Source of the DNA: Escherichia coli O127:H6 str. E2348/69
GTDB lineage: Bacteria; Pseudomonadota; Gammaproteobacteria; Enterobacterales; Enterobacteriaceae
Assembly (NCBI RefSeq): GCF_000026545.1
Contig: NC_011601.1
DNA length: 64,000 nucleotides
Direction: 5' to 3' (one strand)
Positions 46,901 to 52,900 of the stretch are shown in pieces. Numbering within the stretch: the first letter of the stretch is position 1; the number at the start of each line of letters is the position of its first letter. The position numbers are program-made.

Positions 46901-49900
46901 TGTCTATTTTAATGCCGCCAACGGGCCGTGGAGAATTTCTCTGGCCTATTATCAGGAAGGGCCGGTAGATTATAGCGCGGGTAAACGTGGAACGTGGTTT
47001 GATCGCCCGGAGCTGGAGGTACATTATCAGTTCCTCGAAAGCGATGATTTCAGTTTCGGTCTGACTGGTGGTTTCCGTAATTATGGTTATCACTACGTTG
47101 ATGAACCGGGTAAAGACACGGCGAATATGCAGCGCTGGAAAATTGCGCCAGACTGGGATGTGAAACTGACTGACGATTTACGTTTCAACGGTTGGCTGTC
47201 GATGTATAAATTTGCCAACGATCTGAATACGACCGGTTATGCTGATACCCGTGTCGAAACGGAAACAGGTCTGCAATATACCTTCAACGAAACGGTTGCC
47301 TTGCGAGTGAACTATTATCTCGAGCGTGGTTTCAATATGGATGATAGCCGCAATAACGGTGAGTTTTCCACGCAAGAAATTCGCGCCTATTTGCCGCTGA
47401 CGCTCGGCAACCACTCGGTGACGCCGTATACGCGCATTGGGCTGGATCGCTGGAGTAACTGGGACTGGCAGGATGATATTGAACGTGAAGGCCATGATTT
47501 TAACCGTGTGGGTTTATTTTACGGTTATGATTTCCAGAATGGTCTTTCCGTTTCGCTGGAATACGCGTTTGAGTGGCAGGATCACGACGAAGGCGACAGC
47601 GATAAATTCCATTATGCGGGTGTTGGGGGGAATTACTCGTTCTGATAATGTGCTAAATTGCCGGATGCGGGGCGAGCACCAAATCCGGCATACATTTATT
47701 TCAACGACATATGCGTAGCAACGGTAATATTTTGTGGTGACGGTTTTCCGGCAATTAGCTGGAATAATAACTCGCAGCTTTGTTGACCTAACTCCTGCGT
47801 CGGAACATCGATGCCGCCTGGTGCAGGCGTTAATATAAACGACAGCGTTTCATTACTATAACCCACCACCGCTAACTGCTGCGGAATAGCAATGTTTTTC
47901 TCTGCCGCCGCACGATAAATACTCATTAATTTCAGACTGTCAGTAGCAAACACTGCCTCAGGCAACGGTGACTGGCTTAATAATTCCCGTGCTGCTTTTA
48001 ATGCTGTCTCATGGGTATAACCGCCGTCAACAATCCATTCATCACGCACTGCAATATTATGCGTAGCCAGGCTTTGCTTATAACCATTTACCCGATCCAC
48101 TGAAACATGAACATCAAGCGGCGCATGCAGGCAGGCAATATTCTTATGCCCGCTTTCAATTAACGCATCGGTTAGCGCAATACTGTCGCCATAATTATCG
48201 GTATCGACGGAATAAACATGGCTGTATTGACCTTCAACTTTACCGATCACCACCACCGGGATCTCGTATTTGTCGAGTTGTGCAAAGAAGGATTCATCAG
48301 CAGGCGAACTTAGCATAATAATGCCTTTAATCATTTTCTGCTTAATTTTGCTTTCGCATTTTTGCAGATCTTCTGCCGGATTGTGCGATGTTTGTAATAT
48401 CACGTCGAAACCTTCTTCTTCCGCTTTGGCGGTGATGGCATGCAAAACTTCAGAGAAAAACGGATTACCCGCCGTAGTTTTGGTCGAACGGGTAGAAATC
48501 ACCATAATGGCATCAAAACCCGAAGAGGTCAGCGCGCGGGCCAGCTTGTTTGGTTGATACTGTAATTCTTCAATGGCCCGTAACACTTTTTCGCGCGCTT
48601 CCGGGGAGATATTGGTTTGCTTATTCAGCACGCGTGATACGGTGGATTTTGATACGCCTGCAACCCTGGCAATATCATAAATAGTAGGGGACATAGGTCA
48701 GGAACTCCGTCCGAACGTGAATGCTGCACATCTTATGGAGTTCGCCCGTCGATGACAACACGGGTAGTTGATAATCAATGGCCTGGCCCCCACATTCATA
48801 TCCTTACGAACGATTTTTTTTTCTGGTCTTCAGAGCAGCACAGGACAGCAATGAAGCGACTTAAAAATGAACTCAATGCGCTGGTGAATCGGGGTGTCGA
48901 CAGACATCTGCGCCTCGCTGTAACCGGACTTAGCCGCAGCGGCAAAACAGCGTTTATCACCGCGATGGTTAATCAGTTGCTCAATATTCATGCCGGAGCA
49001 CGTTTGCCGCTATTAAGTGCGGTGCGTGAAGAGCGCCTGCTGGGCGTAAAACGCATTCCCCAGCGTGACTTTGGCATTCCGCGCTTCACCTATGATGAAG
49101 GGTTGGCGCAGTTATATGGCGATCCTCCCGCCTGGCCGACGCCTACGCGCGGCGTCAGTGAAATTCGCCTGGCGTTACGTTTTAAATCGAACGATTCGCT
49201 GCTGCGCCACTTTAAGGATACCTCCACGCTGTATCTGGAGATTGTGGATTACCCCGGCGAATGGTTGCTCGACCTGCCGATGCTGGCGCAGGACTATTTA
49301 AGCTGGTCGCGCCAGATGACGGGCTTACTCAATGGTCAGCGCGGCGAATGGTCGGCGAAATGGCGAATGATGTGCGAAGGGCTGGACCCGCTAGCGCCTG
49401 CCGACGAAAACCGGCTGGCAGACATTGCCGCCGCGTGGACCGATTATCTCCATCACTGCAAACAGCAGGGGCTGCACTTTATTCAGCCAGGACGCTTTGT
49501 TTTGCCTGGCGATATGGCAGGAGCGCCCGCGCTGCAATTCTTCCCATGGCCAGATGTCGATGCCTGGGGCGAGTCCAAACTGGCGCAGGCCGATAAGCAC
49601 ACCAATGCCGGAATGTTGCGCGAGCGGTTTAATTATTACTGCGAGAAAGTGGTGAAGGGGTTCTATAAGAATCATTTTCTGCGCTTTGACCGCCAGATTG
49701 TGCTGGTGGATTGCCTGCAACCTCTCAACAGTGGGCCACAGGCATTTAATGATATGCGTCTGGCGCTGACGCAGCTGATGCAAAGTTTCCACTACGGGCA
49801 GCGTACCCTGTTCCGGCGTTTGTTTTCGCCGGTTATCGATAAGCTATTGTTTGCTGCCACTAAAGCGGACCATGTGACCATCGATCAGCACGCTAATATG

Positions 49901-52900
49901 GTTTCATTGCTGCAACAACTGATTCAGGATGCCTGGCAAAATGCGGCGTTCGAAGGGATCAGCATGGACTGTCTGGGGCTGGCGTCTGTTCAGGCGACCA
50001 CCAGCGGAATTATTGATGTTAACGGTGAGAAAATCCCGGCGCTGCGCGGTAATCGACTCAGCGATGGCGCACCGCTCACTGTTTATCCTGGCGAAGTTCC
50101 CGCACGTTTGCCAGGTCAGGCATTCTGGGATAAGCAAGGCTTCCAGTTTGAGGCGTTTCGTCCGCAGGTGATGGATGTCGACAAACCGCTGCCGCATATT
50201 CGCCTTGATGCTGCGCTGGAATTTTTAATAGGAGATAAATTGCGATGACCGAACCGTTAAAACCACGTATTGATTTCGACGGTCCGCTGGATGTCGATCA
50301 GAATCCTAAATTCAGGGCGCAGCAGACCTTTGACGAAAATCAGGCACAAAATTTTGCCCCGGCCACGCTCGACGAAGCGCCTGAAGAAGAGGGGCAAGTT
50401 GAAGCGGTAATGGATGCAGCATTACGTCCGAAACGCAGCCTGTGGCGCAAAATGGTGATGGGCGGGCTGGCTCTGTTTGGCGCAAGCGTTGTCGGGCAGG
50501 GCGTGCAGTGGACAATGAACGCCTGGCAAACCCAGGACTGGGTGGCGCTGGGTGGATGTGCCGCTGGGGCATTGATTATCGGCGCTGGCGTAGGTTCTGT
50601 GGTAACAGAGTGGCGGCGCTTATGGCGCTTGCGACAGCGCGCCCATGAACGCGACGAAGCGCGCGATTTGTTGCACAGTCACGGCACGGGTAAAGGCCGT
50701 GCATTCTGCGAAAAACTGGCGCAGCAGGCGGGCATCGATCAGTCACATCCGGCGCTGCAGCGCTGGTATGCCTCAATCCATGAAACGCAGAACGATCGTG
50801 AAGTGGTCAGTTTGTATGCTCACCTGGTCCAGCCAGTTTTAGATGCCCAGGCGCGGCGCGAAATCAGCCGTTCGGCAGCGGAATCAACGTTAATGATTGC
50901 CGTTAGCCCACTGGCGCTGGTGGATATGGCGTTTATCGCCTGGCGCAATCTGCGTTTGATTAATCGCATCGCCACGCTGTATGGCATTGAACTGGGATAT
51001 TACAGCCGTTTGCGCCTGTTTAAGCTGGTATTGCTGAATATTGCTTTTGCCGGAGCCAGCGAACTGGTGCGCGAAGTGGGGATGGACTGGATGTCGCAAG
51101 ATCTCGCTGCGCGTTTGTCTACCCGGGCAGCTCAGGGGATTGGTGCTGGACTTCTGACGGCACGACTGGGGATTAAAGCTATGGAGCTTTGCCGCCCGCT
51201 GCCGTGGATTGACGATGACAAACCTCGCCTCGGGGATTTCCGTCGTCAGCTTATCGGTCAGGTGAAAGAGACGCTGCAAAAAGGCAAAACGCCCAGCGAA
51301 AAATAATGCAATATCGGGTGCTGACCGGATATCTTTACGCCGAAGTGCCCGTTTTTCCGTCTTTGTGTCAATGATTGTTGACAGAAACCTTCCTGCTATC
51401 CAAATAGTGTCATATCATCATATTAATTGTTCTTTTTTCAGGTGAAGGTTCCCATGCGTCTGGAAGTCTTTTGTGAAGACCGACTCGGTCTGACCCGCGA
51501 ATTACTCGATCTACTCGTGCTAAGAGGCATTGATTTACGCGGTATTGAGATTGACCCCATTGGGCGAATCTACCTCAATTTTGCTGAACTGGAGTTTGAG
51601 AGTTTCAGCAGTCTGATGGCCGAAATACGCCGTATTGCAGGTGTTACCGATGTGCGTACTGTCCCGTGGATGCCTTCCGAACGTGAGCATCTGGCGTTGA
51701 GCGCGTTACTGGAGGCGTTGCCTGAACCTGTGCTCTCTGTCGATATGAAAAGCAAAGTGGATATGGCGAACCCGGCGAGCTGTCAGCTTTTTGGGCAAAA
51801 ATTGGATCGCCTGCGCAACCATACCGCCGCGCAATTGATTAACGGCTTTAATTTTTTACGCTGGCTGGAAAGCGAACCGCAAGATTCGCATAACGAGCAT
51901 GTCGTTATTAATGGGCAGAATTTCCTGATGGAGATTACGCCTGTTTATCTTCAGGATGAAAATGATCAACACGTCCTGACCGGTGCGGTGGTGATGCTGC
52001 GATCAACGATTCGTATGGGCCGTCAGTTGCAAAATGTCGCCGCCCAGGATGTCAGCGCCTTCAGTCAAATTGTCGCTGTCAGCCCGAAAATGAAGCATGT
52101 TGTCGAACAGGCGCAGAAACTGGCGATGCTAAGCGCGCCACTGCTGATTACGGGTGATACCGGCACCGGAAAAGATCTCTTTGCGTATGCCTGTCATCAG
52201 GCAAGCCCCAGAGCGAGCAAACCTTACCTGGCACTGAACTGTGCGTCTATACCGGAAGATGCGGTCGAGAGTGAACTGTTTGGTCATGCTCCGGAAGGGA
52301 AGAAAGGGTTCTTTGAGCAGGCGAACGGTGGTTCGGTGCTGTTGGATGAAATAGGTGAGATGTCACCACGGATGCAGGCGAAATTACTGCGTTTCCTTAA
52401 TGATGGCACCTTCCGTCGGGTTGGCGAAGACCATGAGGTGCATGTCGATGTGCGGGTGATTTGTGCTACGCAGAAGAATCTGGTCGAACTGGTGCAAAAA
52501 GGCGTGTTCCGTGAAGATCTCTATTATCGTCTGAACGTGTTGACGCTCAATCTGCCGCCGCTACGTGACTGTCCGCAGGACATCATGCCGTTAACCGAGC
52601 TGTTCGTCGCCCGCTTTGCCGACGAGCAGGGCGTGCCGCGTCCGAAACTGGCCGCTGATCTGAATACTGTACTTACGCGTTATGCGTGGCCGGGAAATGT
52701 GCGGCAGTTAAAGAACGCTATCTATCGCGCACTGACACAACTGGACGGTTATGAGCTGCGTCCACAGGATATTTTGTTGCCGGATTATGACGCCGCAACG
52801 GTAGCCGTGGGCGAAGATGCGATGGAAGGTTCGCTGGACGAAATCACCAGCCGTTTTGAACGCTCGGTATTAACTCAGCTTTATCGCAATTATCCCAGCA

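Follow-up and report, generated by a model that had tools for sequence, protein, structure and literature searches.

Introduction

In Yersinia enterocolitica, the genes ycjX and ycjF belong to the pspABCD-ycjXF operon (PMC3467454), and large surveys have noted the association of psp genes with DUF463 (PMC9239133), the family to which YcjX belongs. Crystal structures of YcjX from Shewanella oneidensis, named 'YcjX stress protein', are available (PDB 6NZ4, 6NZ5, and 6NZ6; Tsai et al. 2019, J Mol Biol 431:3179, as cited in PMC7680126 and PMC11237479), with one of these entries described as 'YcjX-GDP'. For E. coli, a sigma-32 promoter has been reported for ycjX (PMC3041696, citing Nonaka 2006) and, according to the same source, ycjX, ycjF, and tyrR are entered in RegulonDB as one transcription unit; both ycjX and ycjF respond early to heat (PMC7572479), and infection and lysis by phiX174 raise both of them at the RNA and protein level (PMC8125068). 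Here, we analyze the ycjX-ycjF pair in a stretch of 64,000 nucleotides of Escherichia coli O127:H6 str. E2348/69 (contig NC_011601.1, assembly GCF_000026545.1; hereafter, the window), where the two genes are encoded as follows:

48851-50248, plus strand: ycjX coding sequence, 465 aa, soluble Ras-like (TRAFAC) GTP-binding protein of the DUF463/YcjX family
50245-51306, plus strand: ycjF coding sequence, 353 aa, inner-membrane protein of the DUF697/TIGR01620 family

We propose that ycjX-ycjF encodes a stress-induced GTPase module of two proteins with its site of action at the inner membrane, that is, a membrane-tethered switch, a reading that in our judgment stands about an even chance of being correct. 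The pair itself is already annotated and represents a known module, with nothing new in kind, as an initial annotation made from the sequence of the window had also stated. The gene identities and positions given there are right: the coordinates agree between the open reading frame (ORF) list and the raw sequence, and the RefSeq annotation of the 100%-identical E2348/69 chromosome NZ_CP059840.2 has matching coordinates under the product names 'YcjX family GTP-binding protein' and 'YcjF family protein'. The pair was also placed correctly upstream of tyrR, which starts at 51454, 147 nt past ycjF, and its wide conservation was confirmed, since 5416 of 5426 complete E. coli genomes contain the ycjX-ycjF region, and it could be compared across 80 loci, one per species, with YcjX identities of 47-100% (L-numbers below refer to this set, which spans Enterobacterales, Vibrionales, Aeromonadales, Pasteurellales, Alteromonadales, and Oceanospirillales). 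The label 'uncharacterized' no longer fits YcjX, given the orthologue structures, the GTP-binding name, and the reports on heat, sigma-32, and psp; that is, published characterization, which the initial annotation had named as grounds for revising its view, exists in part in the form of the three crystal structures. The label does remain appropriate for the physiological role of the pair and for YcjF, for which our literature search found no functional study.

YcjX is a predicted GTP-binding protein and YcjF a predicted membrane protein

YcjX matches PF04317 (DUF463) over the complete profile (positions 1-443 of 443; E 1.7e-181, 604.5 bits vs. a cut-off of 25) and carries the full set of GTPase motifs, i.e., G1 (GxxxxGKT), G3 (DxxG), and G4 ([NTS]KxD), whose invariance was scored in 39 sequences sharing 48-93% identity:

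48926-48949, plus strand: G1/Walker A motif GLSRSGKT, residues 26-33, with G26, G31, K32, and T33 invariant
49247-49261, plus strand: G3/Walker B motif DYPGE, residues 133-137, with D133, Y134, P135, G136, and E137 invariant
49859-49870, plus strand: G4 motif TKAD, residues 337-340 ([ST]KxD in the family), the guanine-specificity determinant, with K338 and D340 invariant

No hydrophobic segment was found in YcjX by Kyte-Doolittle hydropathy. The protein is 47% identical to the Shewanella oneidensis YcjX of the three crystal structures (E 1e-123), the fold of which it shares, and based on the GDP-bound orthologue crystal and the RefSeq name it is predicted to bind GTP/GDP. A profile search of YcjX against the PDB by sequence matched only YcjX itself; at the level of structure, the G domain is closest to the Rag/Arf/SR-beta switches, not to dynamins.

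YcjF matches PF05128 (DUF697) over residues 183-341 (E 1.2e-55, 188.1 bits vs. a cut-off of 27.7) as well as TIGR01620 (432.8 bits vs. a cut-off of 160), a family also known as UPF0283, and these matches, together with that of YcjX to PF04317, sustain the earlier description of the pair as a P-loop NTPase plus a DUF697 membrane protein. The AlphaFold model of YcjF, built on 107 diverse family representatives, is all-helical (mean predicted local distance difference test score [pLDDT] 85, predicted template modelling score [pTM] 0.74) apart from an acidic N-terminal tail (residues 1-65) that is modelled with low confidence, and its main parts are:

50449-50613, plus strand: YcjF transmembrane hairpin, residues ~69-90 and 98-123 by Kyte-Doolittle hydropathy, corresponding to model helices 66-95 and 99-144
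50791-51267, plus strand: YcjF DUF697 domain, residues 183-341, forming a bundle of helices that includes a hydrophobic segment (residues 212-234)

The hairpin runs on into a long helix in the model, and the DUF697 domain has invariant residues at D200, D227, R234, Y246, G298, and R317. Hydropathy and the model together predict YcjF to be an integral inner-membrane protein, of which no solved structural relative was found. The YcjF family comprises 1471 clusters at 50% identity (E <= 1e-3), and no YcjX-YcjF or GTPase-DUF697 fusions were present among the best 150 of these, which are ~330-510 aa long apart from fragments, with the four longest differing only in longer disordered N-termini. In other phyla, DUF697 may occur fused to GTPase domains.

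A predicted docking peptide in the YcjF N-terminal tail

The N-terminal tail of YcjF includes a short segment whose predicted structure changes when YcjX is present:

50305-50364, plus strand: YcjF N-terminal cytoplasmic motif, residues 21-40, predicted YcjX docking peptide

We modelled the two proteins as a single chain, YcjX-(GGGGS)5-YcjF, using 13 paired alignment rows in addition to YcjX-only and YcjF-only rows (mean pLDDT 84.4, pTM 0.67). In this fusion, residues 21-40 of YcjF reach a pLDDT of 92-95 and form two short strands (27-29 and 37-39) with a helix (31-34) between them, as opposed to a pLDDT of 61 and almost entirely coil in the model of YcjF alone; the linker and the flanking YcjF tail remain disordered in the fusion. 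Among the 107 family representatives, F23, F29, and F37 are conserved, as is a D/E/S residue after F29, in an otherwise variable tail. Because the motif is conserved and is ordered only together with YcjX, we read it as a docking peptide that would tether YcjX to YcjF, and thus YcjF, according to these models, probably anchors YcjX to the membrane.

A candidate stress promoter and an ancestral psp neighborhood

Upstream of ycjX, the window contains a candidate heat-shock promoter followed by a short leader:

48767-48795, plus strand: candidate sigma-32-type promoter for ycjXF, consisting of -35 element GTTGATA (48767-48773), 14-nt spacer, and -10 element CCCCACAT (48788-48795)
48796-48850, plus strand: ycjX 5' leader, with an AGGA Shine-Dalgarno (SD) at 48842-48845 and a TACG motif at 48805-48808

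The promoter candidate, GTTGATA-N14-CCCCACAT, ends 55 nt 5' of the ycjX ATG and departs from the consensus used (CTTGAAA, a spacer of 13-15 nt, CCCCATNT) at 3 of the 14 specified positions, in a consensus scan with an uncalibrated false-positive rate. A CCCCAT.T-like -10 element is found at equal distance in Citrobacter, Enterobacter, and related loci (L007, L010, L013, L015, and L023), and it recurs in the related genera whether psp or ycjW is the upstream neighbor. No match to a sigma-70 promoter was found on the plus strand just upstream of ycjX. YcjX is reportedly among the most strongly heat-induced E. coli proteins. In the leader, no RNA thermometer or other structure was detected, its fold being no more stable than that of shuffled sequences (z = +1.27). 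An unannotated transcript termed 'ycjX-5p' is among those analyzed in a 2026 study of TadA-dependent A-to-I editing (PMC13170351).

An in-frame ORF of 498 aa that starts at 48752 was considered as the real ycjX and rejected in favor of the 48851 Met, since homology across the 80 species begins at the latter, the AGGA sits 5 nt 5' of it, and the sigma-32-like promoter would fall downstream of 48752.

At the downstream end, tyrR lies within 400 nt of the pair in 43 of the 80 species and within the locus in 60, and the sequence between it and ycjF is, in the window:

51307-51453, plus strand: ycjF-tyrR intergenic region, no intrinsic terminator predicted on the plus strand

On the upstream side, psp genes (pspC, pspD, or pspE) are found directly before ycjX, on the same strand and within 400 nt, in 50 of the 80 species, with a pspD-ycjX gap of only 4 nt in five species. 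The window has a different arrangement, in which pspFABCDE is located at about 30.2-33.2 kb:

31311-33235, plus strand: pspABCDE operon, which in most relatives adjoins ycjX and here is 15.6 kb away
33449-48694, strand unspecified: ycjM-ycjV, ompG, and ycjW sugar-utilization cluster, which here separates psp from ycjXF

That is, ycjXF does not belong to the psp operon in E2348/69, where pspE ends at 33235, ycjX starts at 48851, and both a divergently transcribed ycjW and the sigma-32-like promoter lie in between. The 15.6 kb ycjM-ycjW cluster is missing, and pspE adjoins ycjX at a distance of ~120 nt, in E. albertii (L004) and in another E. coli locus (L005), and the cluster is in fact polymorphic within E. 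coli, being missing in 373 of the 5426 complete genomes, where pspE and ycjX have the same spacing. Judging from gene order, the contiguous psp-ycjXF of these cluster-less genomes recreates a Yersinia-like layout, and their contiguity of pspE and ycjX marks the order seen in K-12 and E2348/69 as derived, by insertion of the cluster into an ancestral pspABCD(E)-ycjXF-tyrR block.

Since E. coli has a promoter candidate of its own and the space upstream of ycjX in Yersinia-type loci is too short for one, we infer, with support from the literature cited above, that there may be two regulatory regimes; that is, expression would be driven by the pair's own sigma-32-type promoter in E. coli and by read-through from the PspF/sigma-54-dependent pspA promoter in Yersinia-type genomes.

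Two further arrangements upstream of ycjX were observed. Several Vibrio loci (L053, L055, L057, and L059-L062), none of which has psp beside ycjX, share a conserved terminator-like hairpin followed by TTTTTTGTTCATC..GATTAAGATT, ~100 nt 5' of ycjX, which may be a lineage-specific promoter or operator. In Citrobacter sp. FP75 (L023) and in a plasmid-borne locus (L084, described below), pspE is separated from pspABCD and flanked by ycjW and ycjX; this placement fits the reported regulation of pspE by YcjW together with the ycj cluster (PMC6599011).

A model for YcjXF as a membrane-tethered switch

Based on these observations, the following sequence of events can be envisioned. A stress promoter would drive a single ycjX-ycjF mRNA, from which YcjX and YcjF would be synthesized together at a fixed ratio, and motif 21-40 of the YcjF N-terminal tail would capture YcjX at the inner membrane. 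As YcjX cycles between GTP and GDP, it might then switch the conformation or the assembly of the YcjF DUF697 helical domain, and the switched domain could help to keep the inner membrane intact under stress or to repair it, in parallel to the Psp system. We favor a role in envelope stress because of the upstream psp genes in 50 of the 80 species, the pspABCD-ycjXF operon of Yersinia, and the induction by phiX174 and by heat. It is also conceivable, with the chances tilting against it, that YcjXF constitutes a previously undescribed kind of small-GTPase switch tethered to a bacterial membrane, in which a YcjF peptide captures the Ras/Arf-like YcjX and DUF697 is the GTP-controlled effector that stabilizes or repairs the inner membrane.

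If this last reading is correct, YcjXF would represent a missing effector arm common to the heat-shock and Psp responses. The module is core in E. coli, widespread in gammaproteobacteria, and travels with the Psp operon, which is needed for Yersinia virulence. The analysis replaces 'function unknown' by a specific and inexpensively testable hypothesis, i.e., that a 20-residue motif of YcjF recruits the GTPase to the inner membrane. The evolutionary picture also becomes clearer, with the E. coli gene order being the derived one, through insertion of a sugar cluster.

Several points weigh against the membrane-tethered switch and should be considered. The docking evidence consists of shifts in pLDDT and secondary structure in one linker-fused AlphaFold2 model with 13 paired rows, and the modelling of fused chains can yield false positives. 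The paper on the YcjX structure is said to have suggested soluble, translation-linked partners. In several Pasteurellaceae, ycjF is unlinked from ycjX. Of the genomes that lack Psp domains altogether, 14% still have DUF463 (PMC9239133), and the psp and ycjXF genes of E. coli are under different sigma factors and thus may differ in the conditions of their expression (PMC3041696).

Among the alternatives, the one that survives best agrees with the partners reportedly suggested for YcjX. Under this hypothesis, YcjX is a cytosolic stress GTPase that acts on soluble targets (e.g., the translation apparatus), and YcjF is simply co-expressed with it and has an unrelated job in the membrane. The soluble nature of YcjX is consistent with this scenario, and the ordering of the YcjF motif by YcjX in the fusion model speaks for a direct connection between the two proteins; on balance, we regard a cytosolic function of this kind as unlikely.

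Probable co-translation across the ycjX/ycjF junction

The synthesis of both proteins from one mRNA, as the membrane-tethered switch supposes, finds its evidence at the junction of the two genes. The initial annotation had described the pair as translationally coupled, with reading frames overlapping by ATGA, and the overlap itself is there in the raw sequence, preceded by a putative ribosome-binding site for ycjF:

50245-50248, plus strand: ATGA start/stop overlap, with the ycjX TGA at 50246-50248 and the ycjF ATG at 50245-50247
50230-50234, plus strand: internal SD AGGAG for ycjF, within ycjX codons Ile460-Gly461-Asp462 and 10 nt before the ycjF ATG

ycjF is located directly 3' of ycjX (gap of at most 68 nt) in 71 of the 80 species loci, and the identical 4-nt overlap is found in 61 of these 71 adjacent pairs (i.e., in 61 of the 80 loci; ATGA in 60 cases and GTGA in one), down to a YcjX identity of 47%. 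Overlaps of 4 nt abound in bacterial operons, and one taken by itself says little; its conservation across species, as seen in the sequence comparison, does carry weight. The overlap is lacking in Enterovibrio, Grimontia, Salinivibrio, Aeromonas, and some Pasteurellaceae, in which the gaps are mostly 1-11 nt and several lineages show a fresh SD in the spacer.

The internal SD provides a second line of evidence. Of 71 orthologues, 53 use GGA and 13 use GGG for Gly461 (66 of 71 together), compared to 13% GGA and 24.5% GGG (38% together) for the other Gly codons of the same ycjX genes. The five cases with GGC or GGT appear to be lineages with a separate spacer SD, according to the junction sequences and with no per-locus cross-check. 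This excess of GGA and GGG is direct evidence that a synonymous site is under selection to keep the ribosome-binding site of ycjF.

The junction RNA, on the other hand, has unusually little structure (z = +1.86; 198 of 200 shuffles folded equally well or better), and RNA folding against these 200 shuffles revealed no hairpin that would occlude the ycjF start, so that ycjF could also initiate independently. Accordingly, the claim of translational coupling can be upheld in part: the overlap and the conserved internal SD make co-translation of ycjX and ycjF well supported at the sequence level, while obligatory coupling, for which an occluding structure would have argued, can only be inferred.

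These data also bear on the possibility that the overlap is incidental, a product of operon compaction, and that YcjX and YcjF are coupled neither functionally nor translationally. The 4-nt type is the commonest overlap in bacterial operons, and the open junction RNA means that ycjF can probably start on its own, both of which are to be expected under such a scenario. Incidental compaction would not, however, readily account for an overlap kept at 47% protein identity, for the 1-11 nt spacing and new SD in lineages that have lost the overlap, for the synonymous selection on the internal SD, or for the dependence of the YcjF motif on YcjX for its order in the AlphaFold models, and hence we consider it improbable.

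A core, syntenic locus and the conflict-system hypothesis

Alternatively, ycjXF might be a conflict or anti-phage (abortive-infection-like) system in which YcjX, as a DO-GTPase-type protein, senses infection and activates YcjF as the membrane effector. The psp-adjacent GTPase has been put in the 'DO-GTPase family' (PMC11237479) that was described by Kaur et al. 2020 (PMC7159879), YcjX has an invariant Walker B glutamate (E137), the partner YcjF is a membrane protein, and both genes are induced in phiX174 infection (PMC8125068), all of which would be compatible with such a role. The genomic data are not: the pair belongs to the core genome, being found in 5416 of 5426 E. coli genomes, and has a fixed context between psp or ycjW and tyrR-tpx, neither YcjX nor YcjF has a PADLOC match, no homologue was found in 50,697 phage records, and the single plasmid copy that was inspected rides as a passenger on a captured stretch of chromosome. 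In addition, neither a second GTPase nor variable effectors, which both define DO-GTPase systems (PMC7159879), are associated with the pair, and YcjF is without a GAP1 annotation. The anti-phage defence reading was therefore rejected on account of the missing PADLOC matches and phage homologues and the passenger status of the inspected plasmid copy, and a conflict system in the wider sense has, in our opinion, little to recommend it.

As for the plasmid copies, ycjX at 96% identity is carried by large conjugative Enterobacter/Klebsiella plasmids, which account for ~70 of the 102 plasmid matches. In the inspected one (L084; NZ_AP025783.1, IncHI2A, 369 kb), positions 1-19395 hold ycjX within a long Citrobacter-like chromosomal segment with the order ycjQ...ompG, ycjW, pspE, ycjX, ycjF, tyrR, tpx, ycjG, mpaA, mppA; this gene order indicates that ycjXF is here part of a captured piece of chromosome, not a mobile module.

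The least probable alternative, that YcjX and YcjF form a 'split' bacterial dynamin-like remodelling machine with YcjX as the G domain and YcjF as stalk and membrane paddle, is weakened by the YcjX G domain, which resembles Rag/Arf/SR-beta and is not a dynamin-type large G domain.

Other features of the window

Two identical ISEc13 (IS4-like) transposase genes are present in the window, at 43370-44743 and 22326-23699. The former splits the GH65 gene ycjT into fragments at ~41117-43204 and 44755-44943, and hence the ycj sugar pathway is probably broken in E2348/69; the latter adjoins sapF. The ABC transporter ATPase gene at the ycjV position (45613-46695) is an intact ORF of 360 aa in the window, and it is presumably a pseudogene in K-12. 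Between fabI and sapF (~14804-22296) lie genes for a TetR regulator, an RND efflux pump (adaptor, permease, and outer-membrane factor), and an MFS transporter, with ISEc13 at the border, a cluster that looks like a strain-specific insertion. Finally, yciW (~12267-13393) is annotated as frameshifted, and an IS200C transposase gene (~9622-10080) is located between rnb and pdeR.

Comparison with known systems

The locus studied here is comparable to the pspABCD-ycjXF operon of Yersinia enterocolitica, which has the same genes in the same order and the same ATGA overlap (Yersinia loci L022, L024, and L043). Unlike in the Yersinia operon, psp ends 15.6 kb upstream of ycjX in E2348/69, and a sigma-32-type promoter of the pair's own appears to replace sigma-54/PspF control. 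The Shewanella oneidensis YcjX structures come from a different species and do not include YcjF, and the E. coli YcjX itself is unsolved.

The DO-GTPase/GAP1 systems resemble the pair in that they, too, are built around a TRAFAC GTPase with a conserved Walker B glutamate, with E137 of YcjX being the candidate for the position described by Kaur et al., and in that they often act near the membrane. They differ in several respects: the sole partner of YcjX is YcjF (DUF697), there is no paralogous GTPase and there are no hypervariable effectors, the housekeeping and stress neighbors are conserved, and the ycjXF locus is core, syntenic, and non-mobile.

For the proposed mechanism, the closest parallels are SR-beta/SR-alpha, Sar1/Arf, and Rag/Ragulator, to which YcjX would be analogous as a GTPase recruited to a membrane by its partner. 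This is a functional analogy and not family membership, as identity to the small GTPase switches is only 11-19%, and YcjX, at 465 aa vs. ~180, has large helical and beta insertions. Likewise, YcjF/DUF697, the proposed receptor, is unrelated to the partners of SR-beta, Sar1/Arf, and Rag.

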